64,000 bases of DNA from contig OZ253588.1 in NCBI GenBank assembly GCA_965263185.1, forward strand, positions 448,895 through 512,894. The letters run 5' to 3'. The translations under genes and the position numbers were made by a program. The notes below the pieces were generated by a model, which was not told the origin of the DNA, did not search any database, and worked only from the letters and a program-made list of their open reading frames with translations. The number at the start of each line of letters is the position of its first letter. Position 1 is the stretch's first letter. Shown piece by piece: positions 10,930-49,483 of the stretch. The stretch is from Dehalococcoidia bacterium (GTDB taxonomy: Bacteria; Chloroflexota; Dehalococcoidia; Lucifugimonadales; UBA2985).

Positions 10930-11379
10930 TTATGTGTTCCTGCCACGCCACTGCTGCTTGTAAGTGATTCGCTCTCTATTAGGCTGACCTTGAAAAGTTA
11001 CCAGATAATGAATTGGATGACTGGACTCCAGGAGGTCTTGTGTCACCGAACTCAATCCATAAGTGATTATCCTGTGCTGCTGGATTGTGGATAGATCTTG
11101 CCGCCGTATCCAGACAACCGATATCCGGCGCGATTTTATGAGCTCAATGTACTGTCGCCTGGAGGAGATGTCCCTGGTTATCCAGACTCCTCTGAACCCG
11201 TACTGGTCTGCAATGTGATTAATGATAACAGGGTCTTCAATTGCACCCGATGGGTTATCGAACTCCTCCTGAACGCTCCGTACAGGATAATCTAGCCCCG
11301 CCAGTACTCGGGCAATAAGAGGATTGAGCCCATTGTCTAGGATAAAGAAAGGACCCCTGTCCGGTTCACGCAGCAGCAA
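10930..11379 (-). CDS. PIN-like / DUF5615-type putative toxin (VapC45-like)
   Basis: FFILDNGLNPLIARVLAGLDYPV...AIEDPVIINHIADQYGFRGVWITRD resembles DUF5615 / Mut7-C-like PIN proteins. Overlaps the upstream DUF433 gene by 14 nt. The region is visibly more AT-rich than its flanks. Confidence 0.6.
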   Translation of the reverse strand: MLLREPDRGPFFILDNGLNPLIARVLAGLDYPVRSVQEEFDNPSGAIEDPVIINHIADQYGFRGVWITRDISSRRQYIELIKSRRISVVWIRRQDLSTIQQHRIITYGLSSVTQDLLESSHPIHYLVTFQGQPNRERITYKQQWRGRNT

Positions 11380-12061
11380 GACCCTCTTCCCAGGAAACCG
11401 CTCTCTCTATATCTTCCAGGGTGATTCCATAGGAACGGGCGAGAGCGTCTTTGCTGTCCCCAGCCTTTACCATGCCTGCGATATCGCTGGTTGGAATCCT
11501 CGTGCCTGCTATACAGGGGCGTCCAAACTGAACCCGTGGCTGCAACATTATGCCATCTTGAGCTTGCCAAGAATCGGCTATTCTCTTCTCGTTAAAAGTC
11601 AGTCCATGGACATTTACCAGGTTCTCTTGCACTAGCTCAGAGAAAGCAAGCTGTCCGTGCTTGCCTGCCACCATCAAGAGCGCTCCAATTTCAGCCCAGA
11701 TATCCGTGGAGCCCTGCTCTTCTGCCCATATTTGTTGGGTGGCGAATGGTCTGGGATGTTCCGTGACACGGCGTAGATCTGCCTCTGCCTTGCGAATCTT
11801 TGCAAAGCTGTACCGCATAGTACGCAAGAATGCAATAACGCGCATCGAGATCAGATCCTCGAAACTTATGAGCATCTTCCTGCCGGGGACCGAAACCAGC
11901 TTCGGGTGGGCCAAGCCGGAACGGATCCAACGTATAAGATGGCCGGAGTTAACTTTATAGCTCATGTCAGGAACCCGAATGTCGGTTAGCAGGATACGAG
12001 CAGCCTCAGTTAACTCATAGCTGCCTTCAAACTCTACATTCTCGGTGGTCTTCGCAGTCAT
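11366..12061 (-). CDS. DUF433-domain putative antitoxin with N-terminal HTH-like extension (VapB45-like)
   Basis: C-terminal QPRVQFGRPCIAGTRIPTSDIAGMVKAGDSKDALARSYGITLEDIERAV is a DUF433 signature. GGGAG lies upstream of the ATG. Confidence 0.65.
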   Translation of the reverse strand: MTAKTTENVEFEGSYELTEAARILLTDIRVPDMSYKVNSGHLIRWIRSGLAHPKLVSVPGRKMLISFEDLISMRVIAFLRTMRYSFAKIRKAEADLRRVTEHPRPFATQQIWAEEQGSTDIWAEIGALLMVAGKHGQLAFSELVQENLVNVHGLTFNEKRIADSWQAQDGIMLQPRVQFGRPCIAGTRIPTSDIAGMVKAGDSKDALARSYGITLEDIERAVSWEEGLAAA

Positions 12062-12380
12062 TTCTTAACTCCCATCCCTGCAACTACAAACTACTCAGGA
12101 CAGGTAGATTAACGCAACCCGGAGATGGCGGTCTCCAATTGACCTTGATATGCCCCCGTAACCTTCTGACTACGATATTGTATCGCAGTTCGCCATTTTT
12201 CTCTATGCCTCTTGCCTTGAAGAAATCCGTACACTTGACGAGGTAACCTTGTACCTTCGGGACATTTTTGCATAGCGCCGAAGCTTTGTCGGCGTTTAGG
12301 TTGGAAAAGCCTTACGTGAGTGCTGCTCACGGCCCTTGGTAATCCCTTGACATGCCCGCAAGCGCCGCCGCCCCGGTGGC

Positions 12381-13136
12381 CTAAGACTCCCTGAAGCCGC
12401 TTTGCCTTCCCAGGCGAAGCGCTCGCGGGATGGTTCGCGCCAACCGGAGCCACATTGGAGCCGCCAAGTACCACTCCATCATCCTTCTGATACGCTGGTC
12501 GGCGTTGCCCAGAAAGACCTGGCCGTGAGCAAGGCAGGCGATGTCAAAGTCCATCTCCGCAATCCTTCGCAGGGACTTTTCGTACAGCTTCATGTCGCTC
12601 TTGGGAAACGGCATAGAGGCCCCCACGTACTCCCCAGCGTTGACGACCATATCGCCCAGGAAGATGGCCTTATGCGACTCCAGGTAGAAGCAGACGCTCC
12701 CCGGCGTGTGCCCGGGGGTGTGTATGACCCTCAGCCCACCGAGGATCGGAAGCGCCTGGCCGTCCTCCAAGAGCCCGTCCGCCTCTATCCTGCGCAGAAA
12801 GGGTATGGGAAGGGGCGTTGAGCCGAAGATGCTGAGGTAGCTTACGAGATGGCGTCCCCGGCTATCGCGGCTGGTATCCGCCGGGTGGGCCAGAACCTGG
12901 ACGGGAGCCATGTCCTTGATTTCCGGCACGCTGCCGGTGTGGTCCGGGTGAGAGTGGGTTACCAGCAGCCGTTTCAGCTCATCCACCCTTCGCCCTATCC
13001 CCTCTATGTACTCGGCCACTATGCGGCCGTTGCCCGGATAGCCTGCATCCACCAGGGTCAGGTCCTCGTCCACCAGTAGATAGACGTTTACCCCCCTGGC
13101 CTTCCGGATGTGATGAATCCCGCTTACGATTTCCAT
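12381..13136 (-). CDS. MBL-fold metallo-hydrolase
   Basis: THSHPDHTG (HxHxDH) motif, later HTPGHTPG and a further Asp/His. Start at MEIVSG with GGGAGG 6 nt upstream; the ORF is open to 13154. Confidence 0.85.
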   Translation of the reverse strand: MEIVSGIHHIRKARGVNVYLLVDEDLTLVDAGYPGNGRIVAEYIEGIGRRVDELKRLLVTHSHPDHTGSVPEIKDMAPVQVLAHPADTSRDSRGRHLVSYLSIFGSTPLPIPFLRRIEADGLLEDGQALPILGGLRVIHTPGHTPGSVCFYLESHKAIFLGDMVVNAGEYVGASMPFPKSDMKLYEKSLRRIAEMDFDIACLAHGQVFLGNADQRIRRMMEWYLAAPMWLRLARTIPRALRLGRQSGFRES

Positions 13137-13166
13137 CGACTGCCTCCCAGTCATGGTTCTACAGGA

Positions 13167-14042
13167 TCACTGCTCCAGAACGATGTCTCCGCTCATTCCC
13201 CCGCTCTTCCTCACCAGCCGGATGCCGTCTATACGCATCCCCCTGTCCACGGCCTTGCACATATCGTAGATGGTGAGCGCGGCGACGCTTACGGCGGTGA
13301 GGGCTTCCATTTCCACCCCTGTCTTGGCCGTAGTCCGGGCCGTAGCTGTAATCAGCGCCTCGTTTGTCTCATCGTTCAGGCGCAGATCAACCTCCACCCT
13401 GTCCAGGGGCAGAGGATGGCAGAGAGGGATGAGCTCTGCGGTGCGCTTGGCTGCCATTATCCCCGCCAACCGCGCTACGGAGAGGACGTCCCCTTTTTCC
13501 ACGTTACCCTTCTTGATGAGCTCCAGGGTCTCCTTGCGCATCGAGACCGACCCCTTGGCCACGGCCTCCCGCGCCGTCTCCGGCTTCCAACCCACGTCCA
13601 CCATGCTGGCCCTGCCCTGCTCGTCCAAGTGGGTAAGCCGTGGGCCGTCCTCCGCGGCGGCCTTGCCGGTCGCCAGCATATCTGCGCGCTCGTTCTGCGG
13701 ATGGCCGGCGTGGCCGCGCACCCATTGCCAGGCCACCTCCCGATCTGCCGCCAGGCGGTCCAGCCGCTCCCACAGGTCTGTGTTGACGTTGCGTTTCCAC
13801 CCCTTGGTCATGGTGTTGATCAGGTAGCGGCTGTCGCTATGAATGGTAACTTGGGCGCCCGCCGGAGTGGCTTCCAGCCCCTTGATGGCAGCCATGAGCT
13901 CCATGCGGTTGTTTGTGGTTTTCTCCTCACGACCGGACAGCTCCGCGCTCCCGCCGTCCTGCTCAATGACCGCGCCCCAGCCGCCGGGGCCGGGGTTGTC
14001 CTGGCAGGCGCCGTCCGTGTAGATGTTGATTCCGTCTGGCAT
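13167..14042 (-). CDS. moaC: Fusion protein: RNase HI domain (N-terminal) + cyclic pyranopterin monophosphate synthase MoaC domain (C-terminal)
   Basis: N-terminal half: INIYTDGAC...[12 protein letters not shown]...IHSDSRYL...[15 protein letters not shown], with all four DEDD residues. C-terminal half: [27 protein letters not shown]...[10 protein letters not shown]...[25 protein letters not shown]. Single uninterrupted ORF. An alternative GTG start at 14093 has AGGAG 8 nt upstream. Confidence 0.8.
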
Positions 14043-14122
14043 TTGGCTCAACCGTCCTGTATCACAGCAGTGGAACGGCCTTGGATGCGCCACGCATAAT
14101 GCTCCTGCGCTGAGCGCTCAAG

Positions 14123-15154
14123 CTATCCGCCGATCTGGTACATCTCCACCTTGCGCTGCGGAGTCTCGGTCAGAGAGGAGCGTATCTCGGAGTAGCGGTC
14201 TCTGCGCCGACCCCATACGTCCGTCACCAACGCCTCCAGGTCTTCGTCGCCGGCTCCCGCCCTCATAGGGCCGCGCAGGTCGCGTCCGTCCCCGGCAAAG
14301 AGGCAGGTGAACAGCTTCCCGTCCGTGGACAGGCGGGCGCGGGTGCAGCTGCTGCAGAAGGCCTCCGTGACCGACGAGATGAAGCCGACCTCTCCACTGC
14401 CATCCAGGTATCTGTACCGGTCTGCGACCTCGCCACGGTAGTTCTTGTCCACAGGCTCCAGGGGCCACTCGGCGTTGATGCGCCTCACCAGCTCCGCCGA
14501 TGAAACCACCTGGTCCAGCTTCCACCCGTTGATGTTCCCCACGTCCATGTACTCTATGAACCTTACAATGACGCCCGTGCCCTTGAAGTGCCTCAGAAGG
14601 TCGATGATGGTGTGGTCGTTCACGCCCTTCTGGACCACGGTGTTCACCTTTATGGGGCTCAGCCCCACACGTTCAGCCTCCTCGATTGCGTCCAGCACCG
14701 TCTTTACGCCATAGCCGCGGCCGTTCATCCGTCCGAAGACCTCGTCATCCAGGCTATCCAGACTGACAGTGATCCGCCGAAGGCCGGCGTCCCTGAGAGC
14801 CTGGGCCTTTGGGGACAGCAGGTAGCCGTTGGTTGTGAGAGTCAGGTCGTCTATGCCTTCGATTGCGGACAGCATGGCTATCAGCTTCTCCAGGCCCGTG
14901 CGTACCAGGGGCTCTCCTCCCGTCAGGCGCACCTTGTCAGTGCCCAGGCCCACGAAGATGCGAACCAGCCGCGTTATCTCCTCAAAGGTCAGTATCTCCT
15001 CCCGCGGCAGGAACTGGTACCTCTCTCCGTATATCTCGGCGGGCATGCAGTACGGGCAACGGAAGTTGCACCTGTCCGTGACGGAGACACGGAGGTCCTT
15101 CATCAGTCTACCGAAGACGTCCTCGATCTTCTTCACCGGCTGCGCCTTCAACAT
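14123..15154 (-). CDS. moaA: GTP 3',8-cyclase MoaA (radical SAM)
   Basis: LRVSVTDRCNFRCPYCMP CxxxCxxC cluster and C-terminal CSSCTRARLSTDGKLFTCLF second cluster. Start at MLKAQ with GGAG upstream; the ORF is open to 15202. Confidence 0.92.
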   Translation of the reverse strand: MLKAQPVKKIEDVFGRLMKDLRVSVTDRCNFRCPYCMPAEIYGERYQFLPREEILTFEEITRLVRIFVGLGTDKVRLTGGEPLVRTGLEKLIAMLSAIEGIDDLTLTTNGYLLSPKAQALRDAGLRRITVSLDSLDDEVFGRMNGRGYGVKTVLDAIEEAERVGLSPIKVNTVVQKGVNDHTIIDLLRHFKGTGVIVRFIEYMDVGNINGWKLDQVVSSAELVRRINAEWPLEPVDKNYRGEVADRYRYLDGSGEVGFISSVTEAFCSSCTRARLSTDGKLFTCLFAGDGRDLRGPMRAGAGDEDLEALVTDVWGRRRDRYSEIRSSLTETPQRKVEMYQIGG

Positions 15155-15244
15155 ATTCCACTCCGGGTACTCGGCGACTCTGCGCCCACGACCGCAATGC
15201 AACTCAACCCAGCGCCCATGCCCTTCCTCGTCTCCACGGCCGCA

Positions 15245-15853
15245 TCATCTCATGGCGGCTTGGGCGTTCAGGTACTCTACGGCTTTCCTGGCCGCCTGGC
15301 CGCGGTGGCTGATGCGGTTCTTCTCCTCCATGCTCATCTCCGCCATGAGCTTTCCCAGGGAGGACACGTAGAACACCGGATCGTAGCCAAACCCGCCCGT
15401 TCCCCGGGGACGCAGAGCTATTGCCCCTTCGCACACCCCCTCGAACAGCCTGACCTCCCCCCCGGGCGCGGCCACCGCTATGACGGAGCGAAAGCGCGCT
15501 CCACGCCTATTCCATTCTATACCTTCCAGCTTGGACAGTAAATACTGGACCCTGTCCGCGTCCGAGGCTTGGGGGCCGGCATAGCGAGCAGACATGACCC
15601 CCGGCTCACCCCCCAGGGCGTCCACCTCAAGGCCGGAGTCGTCTGCCACGGACAGCAGGCCGGCGGCTTCTGCAAAGGCCCTGGCCTTGAGCGCGGCGTT
15701 CTCTTGAAAGGTGTCTCCCGTCTCCTCCACCTCCAGCGCTATGCCCTCCTCCGCGGGAGCGACGATAGTAAATGGCGCCCCCTCCAGGAGCAGTGCCAAC
15801 TCACTCACCTTCCCAGGATTGTTGGTAGCCAGTAGCAGCTTGGGTCTACTCAT
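15245..15853 (-). CDS. rdgB: Non-canonical purine NTP pyrophosphatase (RdgB/HAM1 family)
   Basis: LLLATNNPGKVSEL...ETGDTFQENAALKA...DDSGLEVDALGGEPGVMSARY...GFGYDPVF...ISHRGQA. Internal ATG start chosen; the ORF is open to 16003. Confidence 0.9.
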   Translation of the reverse strand: MSRPKLLLATNNPGKVSELALLLEGAPFTIVAPAEEGIALEVEETGDTFQENAALKARAFAEAAGLLSVADDSGLEVDALGGEPGVMSARYAGPQASDADRVQYLLSKLEGIEWNRRGARFRSVIAVAAPGGEVRLFEGVCEGAIALRPRGTGGFGYDPVFYVSSLGKLMAEMSMEEKNRISHRGQAARKAVEYLNAQAAMR

Positions 15854-15876
15854 ACACGCAGGGACGCGCCCCCGGT

Positions 15877-16920
15877 CTAGACGCTGGAGGCCTCCATTGC
15901 CATGTCTGGTACATAGATGCCCTGCCGCGCCGCGCTGGAGAGCCTGGCCCGTTGATAGAAGGTCTGCTGGGCCAGATCCACGTTGCTCGCCTGGCCGCTC
16001 CACGCCTTCAACGGCGCCGCCTGGAGCGCTCGGCCGTAGGAGAAGCTGAGATGCCAGGGCGCGCCGACCTCCGCGGCTCGCCGGTTCACGGCGTTGAGAT
16101 TCATAATGGCTTCATCGTCGCCCTGGCCGCCGGACAGGAAGACCACGCCTGGGACTGCCGCGGGGATCACTCGCTTGAAGCAGGCCACGGTCTTCTCCCC
16201 CACCTCCTCCGGCCCGGCGCGGCCGGCGGCCCTGTTGCCCGATAGAACCATGCTGGGTTTCAGAAGCATCCCCTCAAGGAGCACCTTCTGCCTAGCGAGC
16301 TGAGAGAAGACCTCGCGCAGAGTGGCCGCACTGGCCTCCAAGCAACAGTCTATGCTGTGGTCACCATCCATAAGGACCTCAGGCTCCACAATGGGGACCA
16401 GCCCGGCTTCCTGGCTCAACGCGGCAAAGCGGGCCAGCGCGTGGGCGTTCACGTCAATGCAGTGCGCTGTCGGGATACCGTCGCCTATGGTGATCACCGC
16501 GCGCCACTTGGTGAAGCCTGCGCCCAGCTCGGCGTACTCCCTCAGCCTGTCTCTCAGGCCATCGAGTCCTTCGGTCATCAACTCATTGGGCGCGCCGGGG
16601 ATGGGTTGCGTCCCCTTGTCCACCTTTATGCCCGGAACAATGCCCTGGTCTGTGAGGACATTCACCAAGGGAGAGCCGTCCGCCCCGTTCTGACGGAGGG
16701 TCTCGTCGAACAAGATGATCCCGCTGATGAACTCGGACACGCCAGGAGTGCGGAAGAGCATCTCCCTGTAGTCCCTGCGGTTCTCCTCCGTAGACTCTAC
16801 GTTAATGGAATCAAACCGACGCTTGATGGTCCCGCTGCTTTCGTCTGCGGCCAGAACCCCCTTGCCCGACGCGAGCATGGCCTCAACTGTGTCTATCAGC
16901 TTTTGCGTCTCCATAAACAT
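15877..16920 (-). CDS. fba: Fructose-bisphosphate aldolase, class I
   Basis: GKGVLAADESSGTIKRRFDSINVESTEENRRDYREMLF is a classic class I (Schiff-base) aldolase N-terminus. 347 aa. Confidence 0.9.
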   Translation of the reverse strand: MFMETQKLIDTVEAMLASGKGVLAADESSGTIKRRFDSINVESTEENRRDYREMLFRTPGVSEFISGIILFDETLRQNGADGSPLVNVLTDQGIVPGIKVDKGTQPIPGAPNELMTEGLDGLRDRLREYAELGAGFTKWRAVITIGDGIPTAHCIDVNAHALARFAALSQEAGLVPIVEPEVLMDGDHSIDCCLEASAATLREVFSQLARQKVLLEGMLLKPSMVLSGNRAAGRAGPEEVGEKTVACFKRVIPAAVPGVVFLSGGQGDDEAIMNLNAVNRRAAEVGAPWHLSFSYGRALQAAPLKAWSGQASNVDLAQQTFYQRARLSSAARQGIYVPDMAMEASSV

Positions 16921-17020
16921 CTCCTTCCTGCGCAGAATCGACTTGATGCGCTAAGCAATAGGGACACCTGCCCTTATTTGGCGGTGTCCCTATTGAAGAG
17001 TCCCAGGTTGGCAGCTACGG

Positions 17021-18187
17021 CTACTGTTGTGAGGAGGGCGTGAGCGCCTCCTCTGTGCCGTTACGCACGGCGAACTGGCTTAGAAGGCCCTCCACCGTGT
17101 GCCGGAATCCGCTGTACTCCAACTCGTTGTAAGGCAGCATGGCAGCCCCGGACCAGCCCTGGTCCCTCATAGTCAACGCCTTCTCCTGGGCCTTGTTTCG
17201 CACGTAGTCCCAGGCCGGGTTGTCGAAGATGTCCACCACCTCGTCCGAGAAGCGGCCGTCCGCATCCAGCGAGAAGCCCACGCATGACACCAGAGGCAGG
17301 CAGTAGATGCCGGTGACGGGCGTGTTCAGCGGCACGGGCATGAGCGGCATGACGTGGGAGCCGCGGGCGTCGCCGCCGATGTAGTGAGCCTTGGTGAAGG
17401 GCGATATCAACTCCTCCGGAGCGGGGAAGACGCCCTGATTGCGAACAAGCGCAACCGGATCGTCCTTGCCGGTGTACGTCCCTGCTATGCTGTGCATCCG
17501 CTGCGCGGAGATGGCCGCCGCCGGCTCGTTGAAGGTGCGGGAGTAGATGGAGTCTATTCCAAACCGCTCGTTGTCACGGAGCAGCATGGCGATCTTGTAG
17601 TAGTCTTCCGGAGCGTTCAGTTCTATGATGCTGTCTCCACCGGTGTGGTCCATGTCAATGATGTTGAAGCGGAACCCCCCTATCAATCTGGGAAGCATCA
17701 AGCCTGCGCAGTACATGGGGTCGGCAAAGCCCAGGAACAGGGGGAGGTTGTAGGCTCCGGGGCCGCACTTGTCGGCGGCGAACATCATAAAGGACTCGGC
17801 GGGACGCACCGGGTTTGTCTTGATAGGGTCGTGCTCAAACTCCAATTCGGCCACGGCAGGGCCGGCGCCGCGGATGTTGCCCGATGGGGCATCCACCAAA
17901 AGGTCCTGGCCGGCTCCGTAGAGGCCGCCCTTCTGGGCAATGGCCGTGGCCTCCAGAAAGGTCTTCCAGGCGAACTGGTGAATCTCATCGTTGTTGGCGC
18001 CCTTGGTGTGTGACACGAGCATGGCAATGTCATCGCCGGTATGGGACACGAAGCCGTCTATCAGCAGGTTGCTGCTAATGGCGTCCGCGACCGCCTTCCT
18101 GGTGGCTTCCATCATTCCTGCTGACGGCTTTGTGTGACCTCCTATGGATCCCACATCGGCTTTCAGGATGGACAAAGTGATTCGCAT
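17021..18187 (-). CDS. fbp: Bifunctional fructose-1,6-bisphosphate aldolase/phosphatase (class V FBPase)
   Basis: MRITLSILKADVGSIGGHTKPS N-terminus and overall ~385 aa match the archaeal-type FBP aldolase/phosphatase. GGAGG lies upstream of the ATG at 18187. Confidence 0.9.
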   Translation of the reverse strand: MRITLSILKADVGSIGGHTKPSAGMMEATRKAVADAISSNLLIDGFVSHTGDDIAMLVSHTKGANNDEIHQFAWKTFLEATAIAQKGGLYGAGQDLLVDAPSGNIRGAGPAVAELEFEHDPIKTNPVRPAESFMMFAADKCGPGAYNLPLFLGFADPMYCAGLMLPRLIGGFRFNIIDMDHTGGDSIIELNAPEDYYKIAMLLRDNERFGIDSIYSRTFNEPAAAISAQRMHSIAGTYTGKDDPVALVRNQGVFPAPEELISPFTKAHYIGGDARGSHVMPLMPVPLNTPVTGIYCLPLVSCVGFSLDADGRFSDEVVDIFDNPAWDYVRNKAQEKALTMRDQGWSGAAMLPYNELEYSGFRHTVEGLLSQFAVRNGTEEALTPSSQQ

Positions 18188-18220
18188 GATTCCCCTCCAT
18201 CGCAAGTCGTACTTAAGGCC

Positions 18221-33146: not shown

Positions 33147-33222
33147 GCCCCTGTAGCTCAGGAGGACAGAGCATCGGTTTCCTAAACCGAGTGCCCCGGT
33201 TCGAGTCCGGGCAGGGGTACCA
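33147..33222 (+). tRNA. tRNA-Arg (anticodon CCT), CCA encoded
   Basis: Cloverleaf read by eye: acceptor GCCCCTG/CAGGGGT (G1-U72 wobble), D arm GCTC..GAGC, anticodon arm TCGGT-TTCCTAA-ACCGA, T arm CCCGG-TTCGAGT-CCGGG, then ACCA. Confidence 0.9.
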
Positions 33223-48860: not shown

Positions 48861-48926
48861 GGCCAGGCACGGCGCCAGGCTCGGTTTCTGCAACGCCTTC
48901 CGCATATGAGAAGCAGGCGTACATTG

Positions 48927-49009
48927 TGCCCAGGGAGGGATTCGAACCCACACCCCCTTGCAGGGAGCGGATTTTAAGTCCGCCGCGTCTACCCTTCCGC
49001 CACCTGGGC
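48927..49009 (-). tRNA. tRNA-Leu (anticodon TAA), class II, no encoded CCA
   Basis: GCCCAGGTGGCGGAAGGGTAGACGCGGCGGACTTAAAATCCGC + long variable arm + TTCGAATCCC...CCTGGGCA. One U-U mismatch in the T stem. Confidence 0.85.
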
Positions 49010-49023
49010 TTGTAAGGCGGTTT

Positions 49024-49064
49024 CAAACAAAAGAGCAGAAAGGGCGCTGGTCCCCGTTCTGCTC
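49024..49064 (-). terminator. Hairpin + U-tract between tRNA-Cys and tRNA-Leu(TAA)
   Basis: Minus strand reads GAGCAGAA-cggggaccagcgccct-TTCTGCTC followed by TTTTGTTTG. Confidence 0.4.
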
Positions 49065-49081
49065 CGTACTCCCGGATGCTA

Positions 49082-49157
49082 TGGAGGCGACGGGCGGACT
49101 CGAACCGCCGAATAGAGCTTTTGCAGAGCTCCGCCTTAACCACTTGGCTACGTCGCC
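49082..49157 (-). tRNA. tRNA-Cys (anticodon GCA), CCA encoded
   Basis: GGCGACGTAGCCAAGTGGTTAAGGCGGAGCTCTGCAAAAGCTC...GGCGGTTCGAGTCCGCCCGTCGCCTCCA. Confidence 0.9.
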
Positions 49158-49179
49158 TTGCCTCTATTGTACCATTTTT

Positions 49180-49266
49180 TGGTGCCGAGGAGGAGATTTG
49201 AACTCCTACGGGTTTGCACCCACGGCCCCCTCAAGACCGCGTGTCTACCAATTCCACCACCTCGGC
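49180..49266 (-). tRNA. tRNA-Leu (anticodon GAG), class II, CCA encoded
   Basis: GCCGAGGTGGTGGAATTGGTAGACACGCGGTCTTGAGGGGGCCG + variable arm + AGGAGTTCAAATCTCCTCCTCGGCACCA. Confidence 0.9.
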
Positions 49267-49282
49267 AGTAGGCGCCCTATTT

Positions 49283-49359
49283 TGGCAGGAGTGGGAGGAC
49301 TCGAACCCCCGACCTGCGGTTTTGGAGACCGCTGCTCTAGCCAACTGAGCTACACTCCT
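49283..49359 (-). tRNA. tRNA-Trp (anticodon CCA), CCA encoded
   Basis: AGGAGTGTAGCTCAGTTGGCTAGAGCAGCGGTCTCCAAAACCGCAGGTCGGGGGTTCGAGTCCTCCCACTCCTGCCA. Confidence 0.9.
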
Positions 49360-49407
49360 GTAAAAGCCCACACAATAATGCAGGGCTATATGCCAATTTT
49401 CACTATA

Positions 49408-49483
49408 TGGTACCCCAGGCAGGACTCGAACCCGCAACCTACGGCTTAGAAGGCCGCCGCTCTATCCTTTGAGCTACTGGGGC
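49408..49483 (-). tRNA. tRNA-Arg (anticodon TCT), CCA encoded
   Basis: GCCCCAGTAGCTCAAAGGATAGAGCGGCGGCCTTCTAAGCCGTAGGTTGCGGGTTCGAGTCCTGCCTGGGGTACCA (G1-U72 wobble). Confidence 0.9.

Follow-up and report, generated by a model that had tools for sequence, protein, structure and literature searches.

We describe an rnhA-moaC fusion gene on a 64,000-nucleotide stretch (the window; G+C content, 60.7%) of contig OZ253588.1 from a Dehalococcoidia bacterium. The gene lies on the minus strand directly downstream of moaA and most likely encodes a single chain of 291 amino acids, in which an N-terminal RNase HI domain is followed by a short linker and a full-length MoaC domain. The fusion gene is genuine and not an artefact. 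We consider it likely that it represents a vertically inherited fusion of the Chloroflexota (Dehalococcoidia-type) and that its one 291-residue chain comprises two autonomous enzymes. The domain identities, the catalytic residues, purifying selection, the reading frame and the gene order were observed directly, and from these we infer the two activities and their independence.

RNase HI is a Mg2+-dependent nuclease that cleaves the RNA strand of RNA/DNA hybrids. MoaC converts 3',8-cH2GTP, the product of MoaA, to cyclic pyranopterin monophosphate (cPMP), which is the first stable intermediate of molybdenum cofactor (Moco) synthesis, and is hexameric in crystal structures. In our model, the MoaC half would take 3',8-cH2GTP from the MoaA encoded upstream and yield cPMP, the RNase HI half would degrade the RNA strand of RNA/DNA hybrids, and both halves would act independently on a flexible tether. 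A MoaC hexamer would present six RNase H modules per particle, and the fusion would have been fixed mainly through harmlessness or through a benefit of co-expression.

Gene structure and start codon

The initial annotation of the window described a single open reading frame (ORF) at 13167 to 14093, gave no strand for it and quoted motifs for both domains. The ORF is confirmed and lies on the minus strand, where the ORF listing of the window gives 308 amino acids starting at GTG 14093, and the quoted motifs are all found (23 residues for RNase HI, 11 for the linker and 16 for the start of MoaC). However, this GTG simply marks the most upstream start that a mechanical ORF call allows. The codon is GCG in two close relatives (L088 and L089; 96% protein identity) and is removed by a 20-nt deletion in a third (L090), and we rejected it as the start codon. 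Neither ATG 14042 nor the stretch immediately before it varies among the close-relative assemblies compared, and homologues are 289 to 293 amino acids long and open with M-I-x-I-Y-T-D-G, without the 17-codon extension. Because the GTG is not conserved, the ATG is conserved and the homologues have this length, we take 13167 to 14042 as the most likely true coding sequence (CDS); the 17-codon extension is probably not translated. Residues of the fusion are numbered from the Met at ATG 14042. The annotation gave a spacing of 30 to 80 nt to moaA; the end of moaA at 14123 lies 29 nt before GTG 14093 and 80 nt before ATG 14042. No second RNase H or MoaC gene is encoded within the 64-kb window.

The spacer between moaA and the fusion has a feature of its own. 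At 14062 to 14110 (minus strand), an AGGAG is followed after 5 nt by ATG 14097, which opens an 11-codon ORF; the 20-nt deletion of L090 takes out both this ATG and GTG 14093. The 11-codon ORF could be a leader peptide or a chance occurrence.

Occurrence and origin of the fusion

Several lines of evidence support the fusion as real and lineage specific, which the initial annotation had considered alongside an accident of translational coupling and an assembly or indel artefact. First, in a collection of 5.8 billion proteins, the RNase_H+MoaC architecture was present in 120 of the 120 best clusters (64 to 96% identity), and searches seeded with two divergent members added more than 200 further clusters. 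Classification of the retrieved sequences by domain hidden Markov models gave 343 full-length fusions in total. They come from ENA, NCBI, JGI, Logan and Tara assemblies, at least five sources, and have the same in-frame junction down to ∼45% identity; moreover, single sequences recur across samples, e.g., P0055 on at least 23 contigs and P0413 on 160. Second, the in-frame junction is identical in three long-read assemblies of near-identical relatives (L088 to L090). Third, the domains are under purifying selection while the linker varies, as detailed below. The wider search for fusions that the annotation had suggested thus uncovered them in abundance, and, where the organism is named, it is always a Chloroflexi, Chloroflexota or Dehalococcoidia bacterium. 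An RNase H-profile scan of genome contigs, which is dominated by ordinary RNase HI and gives organism names rather than a census, returned among the matches listed at least three fusion loci (L001 to L003) in metagenome-assembled genomes titled Dehalococcoidia or Chloroflexota.

The annotation had also stated that a real fusion would be contradicted if homologous fusions were lacking and close relatives had rnhA and moaC as separate genes at this locus; the fusions are numerous, and no natural unfused pair was seen at the locus. Among the matches listed, 77 stand-alone RNase HI loci belong to other phyla, and none has MoaC within 6 kb. The gene for the nearest stand-alone MoaC (P0154; 70% identity) has unrelated neighbors, in the order trpGDC-moaC-moeA, and is, therefore, uninformative on the ancestral state. 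P0142 (L094) was considered as a natural RNase H-only state and rejected; it derives from a noisy, frameshifted long-read contig that does carry MoaC, split over three frames.

Frameshift-split genes were seen elsewhere in long-read metagenome assemblies, i.e., Ham1 in L088 (8185 to 8798) and IGPS and MoeA in L092, and both moaA and the fusion are frameshifted in L094 (4335 to 5915). Such gene calls can mimic split or truncated genes.

When the MoaC domains are placed in a neighbor-joining tree, 65 of the 86 fused sequences group in one clade that contains none of the 105 non-fused sequences and that includes intact, intermediate and dead variants, while the remaining 21, which are divergent, are unplaced. 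On the basis of this tree, the core of the fusion family has one origin. The tree does not settle between a single and multiple origins of the whole family; because synteny is shared, one origin is probable here as well.

The two domains

The N-terminal domain is of the RNase HI type. Pfam RNase_H (PF00075) matches residues 22 to 143 of the 308-amino acid ORF (E = 1.8e-35; 122.6 bits against a cutoff of 25.8), and a BLASTP alignment of the domain with E. coli RNase HI gives 44% identity and two gaps, one of 8 and one of 5 residues. In a Foldseek search against the PDB, the N-terminal half matches E. coli RNase HI chains with template modeling (TM) scores of 0.76 to 0.82. The active site is complete, with D10, E48, D70, H111 and D121 corresponding to D10, E48, D70, H124 and D134 of E. 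coli. Across the 118 clusters of the window's clade, the first four of these residues are invariant, and the position of D121 is occupied by D in 107 clusters and by N in the other 11. The domain of L001 is 82% identical to that of the window (tblastn), and the ratio of nonsynonymous to synonymous substitution rates (dN/dS) between the two is 0.14 by the Nei-Gojobori method (dS, 0.7 to 0.9) and 0.11 to 0.29 for closer pairs. The initial annotation referred to the domain as intact. This description holds for the catalytic residues, all of which are present, but not for the basic protrusion (∼80 to 100 in E. coli), from which 13 residues equivalent to E. coli ∼80 to 87 and 94 to 98 are gone. The domain also misses the cutoff of the NCBIfam RNase HI equivalog PRK00203 (144.4 bits against 160), a shortfall that fits with the 13-residue deletion.

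The annotation's full-length MoaC, which follows the linker without a stop or a change of frame, is borne out by family models and alignment. Pfam MoaC (PF01967) matches residues 164 to 299 of the 308-amino acid ORF (E = 2.2e-60; 203 bits against a cutoff of 27), and the NCBIfam models TIGR00581 (equivalog; 219.6 bits against 141.5) and PRK09364 (237 bits against 162) are both matched above cutoff. The C-terminal 156 residues align without gaps to E. coli MoaC at 60% identity. The six catalytic and substrate-binding residues K183, H209, E244, E246, D260 and K263, which correspond to K51, H77, E112, E114, D128 and K131 of E. coli MoaC, are invariant in the same 118 clusters. The predicted fold matches 4pyd, 1ekr and 2ide with a TM score of 0.95 and a root-mean-square deviation of 1.2 to 1.5 Å, and the predicted local distance difference test (pLDDT) for the domain is ∼95. 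Finally, dN/dS for MoaC is 0.19 between the window and L001 and 0.09 to 0.19 for closer pairs.

An AlphaFold2 model of the whole chain, built with the family alignment, has a mean pLDDT of 90 and a predicted TM score (pTM) of 0.54, with residues 132 to 136 below a pLDDT of 50. High pLDDT together with this pTM indicates two confidently predicted domains for which no fixed mutual orientation or interface is predicted. The spacing from D121 to H138 varies between 15 and 42 residues over the 118 clusters, the sequence in between is not conserved, and across the wider fusion family disordered linkers span 5 to 184 residues. Neither by fold (Foldseek) nor by sequence was a PDB chain found that spans both domains. 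Independence of the domains is proposed because pLDDT is high but pTM is only 0.54, because the linker has low confidence and because it varies in length and sequence.

Variation within the family

To describe variation in the active site, we use as a signature the residues equivalent to E. coli D10, E48, D70, H124 and D134, counted over the 343 fusions. Of these, 259 carry DEDHD, 65 carry DEDHN (N at the D134 equivalent), 16 carry AEDPW and 3 are otherwise degenerate. Catalytic residues are lost in P0127, P0136 and P0141 and in the AEDPW clade. The protrusion is short in 307 of the 343 fusions and long, as in E. coli, in 35.

The AEDPW clade (P0129 and P0294 to P0308; loci L095 and L096, 8001 to 9053, L098, 3001 to 4014, and L099, 3001 to 4032) has replaced D10 by A and D134 by W and has lost the His. 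In addition, the substrate-contact residues N44 and N100 are replaced by A and D, and the new residues are fixed. Nevertheless, dN/dS is 0.05 to 0.12 in the pseudo-RNase H part and 0.05 to 0.075 in MoaC; dS is near saturation for these pairs (0.8 to 1.5), while the proportions of nonsynonymous (pN, 0.07 to 0.12) and synonymous (pS, ∼0.6) differences are unambiguous. The divergence of the N-terminal domain relative to MoaC is 0.97 to 1.32 in the dead-site clade as against 1.12 to 1.43 in the intact clade. AlphaFold predicts the AEDPW module to be folded (pLDDT 92 to 96) on a disordered tether of ∼40 residues (pTM 0.46). Thus, a domain that is predicted from established RNase HI enzymology to be inactive is, by its substitution pattern, kept by purifying selection.

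In a further variant of 445 to 464 amino acids, a second, degenerate RNase H copy that has lost D10, D70 and D134 lies between RNase H and MoaC (P0035, P0042 and P0021, comprising four proteins in three 90% clusters, with P0035 located at L097, 6001 to 7341). The 50%-cluster representative P0125 has the same arrangement. These tandem variants are duplications of the N-terminal module. Tandem RNase HI proteins with two or three domains and without MoaC were also recorded (P0131, P0147, P0160, P0205, P0208, P0209, P0246, P0436 and P0455); P0131 has three RNase H domains in 509 amino acids.

Genomic neighborhood

The fusion is the third gene of a triad that begins with a Ham1/RdgB-type gene and continues with moaA (Table 1). 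For moaA, the mechanical ORF extends to 15202, and orthologues in the same position have 343 amino acids.

Table 1. Features at the rnhA-moaC locus of the window
Feature	Coordinates	Strand	Basis or remark
rnhA-moaC fusion CDS (most likely extent), 291 amino acids plus stop	13167..14042	-	ORF; Pfam and NCBIfam domain matches; conserved ATG
RNase HI domain, residues 1-126	13665..14042	-	Alignment to E. coli RNase HI; conservation; Foldseek; pLDDT ∼90
Interdomain linker GKAAAEDGP, residues 127-135	13638..13664	-	Low pLDDT; variable across the family
MoaC domain, residues 136-291, full length	13170..13637	-	Alignment to E. coli MoaC; TIGR00581; Foldseek
Possible 5' extension, 17 codons from GTG 14093	14043..14093	-	AGGAG 8 nt upstream of GTG
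moaA (GTP 3',8-cyclase), 343 amino acids from conserved ATG	14123..15154	-	TIGR02666, 385 bits; Radical_SAM and Mob_synth_C
Ham1/RdgB-type non-canonical purine nucleoside triphosphate pyrophosphatase, ∼202 amino acids	15245..15853	-	Pfam Ham1p_like, 213 bits; first gene of the triad
Metallo-beta-lactamase-fold gene, 12 nt downstream of the fusion	12381..13154	-	Pfam Lactamase_B, 97 bits

The order Ham1-moaA-fusion is found in L001, L003, L081 to L086, L088 to L090 and L094 to L099. It spans the close relatives (L088 to L090), relatives at 58 to 82% identity (L001 and L003) and relatives at 65 to 66% (L081 to L085, including JGI metagenomes). The triad also extends to the divergent L086, which has a full protrusion and in which the genes overlap or abut, and to the dead-site clade (L095, L096, L098 and L099). 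L097, the tandem variant, has a gene without a recorded Pfam match between Ham1 and the fusion. With the exception of L002, all related loci with a recovered and annotated upstream flank have moaA before the fusion. The outer flanks vary, with fructose-bisphosphatase (FBPase)/aldolase, MTHFR/TrkH or cytochrome oxidase genes upstream and metallo-beta-lactamase (MBL)-fold, major facilitator superfamily (MFS) or trypsin-like genes downstream. The MBL-fold gene is present only in closer relatives (L081, L088 to L090 and L097), and in L083 and L095 an MFS gene or a trypsin-like gene on the opposite strand takes its place. Because the outer flanks differ between loci, we regard the triad itself as the conserved unit.

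No Moco riboswitch or other RNA element was detected upstream of moaA at Rfam gathering thresholds, at which only six tRNAs were found, and a promoter and terminator scan of 12300 to 16200 gave nothing above shuffled expectation. Five of the tRNAs form a cluster at 48926 to 49483 (minus strand; Leu-taa, Cys-gca, Leu-gag, Trp-cca and Arg-tct), and a lone tRNA-Arg(cct) lies at 33147 to 33222.

Two regions that flank the locus have features of their own. Directly upstream of Ham1, at 15877 to 18205 (minus strand), a class I fructose-bisphosphate (FBP) aldolase (PF00274) adjoins a bifunctional-type FBP aldolase/phosphatase (FBPase_3; PF01950); in the more distant L083, a classical FBPase (PF00316) is found at this position instead. 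The stretch that separates the ATP synthase operon from the MBL-fold gene, at 10930 to 12061 (minus strand), is a variable slot. In the window, it holds a DUF433 protein (231 amino acids) that overlaps a 149-amino acid ORF without a Pfam match, an arrangement that looks like a toxin-antitoxin pair, while one close relative has an Mrr-type restriction endonuclease there and another has HicA/HicB (compare L088, 12111 to 13115, and L090, 4673 to 5735).

Alternative explanations

Some of our observations weigh against a fusion of two autonomous enzymes that is retained for what each of them catalyzes. The N-terminal domain scores below the RNase HI equivalog cutoff (144 against 160 bits) and has a protrusion shortened by 13 residues; because of these two features, its RNase H activity may be weak or depend on a partner, as has been proposed for Rv2228c. 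Conservation of the triad amid changing flanks is a hint of a functional unit, as opposed to drift. Finally, because the AEDPW subclade of 16 clusters has lost D10, the His and D134 and yet stays constrained, the retention of the module in the fusion family is not accounted for by RNase H catalysis alone.

A possible, though on the whole unlikely, alternative is that the RNase H-fold module has been selected for a role tied to MoaC or to the Ham1-moaA-moaC unit, in which cleavage is not, or not solely, needed. Candidate roles include non-catalytic binding of a nucleic acid or ligand, recruitment of MoaA, localization, or avidity in the MoaC hexamer that replaces the basic protrusion. In favor of such a role, the N-terminal domain of the AEDPW clade is as constrained as described above, has diverged relative to MoaC no faster than in the intact clade, and is still predicted to fold. 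Intact and dead clades also share seven positions that are unlike those in 74 stand-alone RNase HI, e.g., H114 to R and I78 to M. The prevalence of short protrusions in the fusions is matched by a difference in match length, which among the matches listed is mostly 399 to 405 nt at the 77 stand-alone RNase HI loci as against 366 to 372 nt in fusions; and the partner domain has been put forward as a substitute for the protrusion in Rv2228c. The Ham1 triad, moreover, is kept in all subfamilies examined. However, no fixed contact between the domains is predicted for either the intact or the dead variant, and disordered linkers of such different lengths argue in the same direction. The 35 fusions with a full protrusion demonstrate that its loss is not required. 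Moreover, the catalytic set is kept in 324 of 343 fusions (94%; DEDHD and DEDHN together), as expected for a working nuclease, and no candidate ligand or partner was identified.

It is doubtful that the RNase H module is integral to, and selectable within, a conserved Ham1(RdgB)-MoaA-[RNase H]MoaC unit, where its role would outlast loss of the active site. If so, the module could possibly bind nucleic acids or nucleotides and thereby link cPMP and Moco synthesis to the sanitation of purine nucleotides or of the genome, and the dead-site clade would represent a pseudo-enzyme that keeps a second function. In E. coli, RdgB (Ham1) and Moco-dependent enzymes are separate, parallel defenses against N-hydroxylated purine analogues (PMC1173102, PMC3831636). 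Nothing in our analysis connects RNase H with this defense.

That the two domains become separate proteins from one mRNA, by an internal start or by proteolysis that frees MoaC, is improbable. In favor of it, a fusion cluster includes a JGI gene call (P0286) for a MoaC-only product of 165 amino acids, and a GGAGGA lies within the coding sequence of the linker. However, the next TTG follows this GGAGGA at a distance of 19 nt and belongs to the conserved LTHLD motif of MoaC, and the only in-frame ATG near the junction, that of M122, is replaced in homologues by a codon for K, A, R or Q. Because M122 is not conserved, the junction has no conserved internal start, and the unconserved linker sequence likewise argues against a conserved cleavage site.

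Even less can be said for the RNase H half of the window protein as a decaying, functionless relic, with MoaC alone being of importance. This explanation would account for the loss of catalytic residues in P0127, P0136, P0141 and the AEDPW clade and for the fact that annotation pipelines label the protein MoaC only. However, it is very hard to reconcile with the invariance of D10, E48, D70 and H111, and the restriction of D121 to D or N, in the window's clade, or with the low dN/dS of the domain among close relatives and toward L001; even the dead-site clade is constrained. Lastly, the possibility that rnhA and moaC are joined in this genome only, whether through an error of assembly or sequencing, an artefactual indel or a recent accident of read-through between separate genes, is effectively refuted. 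Frameshifts do occur in long-read assemblies of this group (Ham1 is split in L088, and MoaC is frameshifted in L094), but such errors disrupt ORFs and do not create conserved ones. Hundreds of clusters from at least five data sources have this in-frame junction, as do three assemblies of near-identical relatives.

Significance

A vertically inherited fusion of two autonomous enzymes, the explanation that we favor, does not overturn current understanding of either enzyme. Both are textbook enzymes, RNase HI fusions and MoaC fusions are each already known, and the fusion sequences themselves are already public. However, database entries name them as MoaC only, except for one JGI entry labeled "ribonuclease HI", and a search of the accessible literature found no paper on the RNase H + MoaC architecture. 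The statement in the initial annotation that no functional link between the two activities is known thus stands. Several hundred clusters are, therefore, under-annotated, and a possible RNase HI of this lineage may be hidden from metabolic and repair reconstructions; the protein should carry a bifunctional label. The fusion also represents a second, independent case in which a protrusion-poor RNase HI is joined to an enzyme of cofactor biosynthesis, after the actinobacterial RNase HI-CobC proteins. The two cases can be compared naturally to ask if fusions of this kind are neutral, or if a lost substrate-binding handle is made good by the partner. The dead but strongly constrained subclade, in turn, is well suited to a search for what an RNase H fold might do without catalysis.

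Comparison with known systems

Compared to E. coli RnhA (1RNH, 2RN2), the N-terminal domain has the same fold, 44% sequence identity and the full site of D10, E48, D70, D134 and H124. It differs in the 13 missing protrusion residues, the sub-cutoff score, the fused MoaC and family-specific residues such as R in place of H114. Similarly, the MoaC domain shares with E. coli MoaC (1EKR, 4PYD) the fold, the six active residues and 60% identity, and here it is encoded directly after moaA. Unlike E. coli MoaC, it is preceded by an RNase HI module of 135 residues, linker included, and there is no moaABCDE operon; only moaA adjoins, preceded by Ham1.

The closest parallel among RNase HI fusions is the RNase HI-CobC/acid phosphatase group (Rv2228c, MSMEG_4305/RnhC and SCO2299). 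These proteins have an N-terminal RNase HI that lacks the basic protrusion, a variable linker, a partner from cofactor biosynthesis, a restricted lineage and purifying selection on both halves. By contrast, their partner is a CobC of the histidine phosphatase fold, and they belong to Actinobacteria, a different phylum. The window protein scores far below the cutoff of PRK07238, "bifunctional RNase H/acid phosphatase" (39 against 326 bits), and its match to 3hst, an RNase H of the Rv2228c type, is weak (E = 6e-7; 32 bits) compared to those to E. coli-type RNase HI (1e-32 to 7e-34), so that the two RNase H domains are only distantly related. The likeness is one of analogy and not of homology of the fusion event. 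For MSMEG_4305/Rv2228c, the domains have been reported to be functionally dissociated in vivo, with RNase H function barely changed when CobC was removed; for Rv2228c in vitro, a role of the partner as a stand-in for the basic protrusion was suggested (PMC7466739). The authors considered fixation by drift most probable and described the linker as variable (PMC7466739).

MoaC is also tolerated in other multidomain chains, including MoaC-MoaB, MoaC-MOSC, MoaC-MobA and the eukaryotic MOCS1A-MOCS1B, and many MoaC domains in databases lie at the C-terminus of longer proteins. The window protein falls far below the cutoffs of the three NCBIfam fusion models (MoaC/MoaB, 195 against 285 bits; MoaC/MOSC, 193 against 457; MoaC/MobA, 132 against 606), and these matches span the MoaC part only. 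In the known MoaC fusions, the partners are proteins of the Moco pathway or Moco-dependent proteins, whereas here MoaC is joined to an enzyme of nucleic acids.

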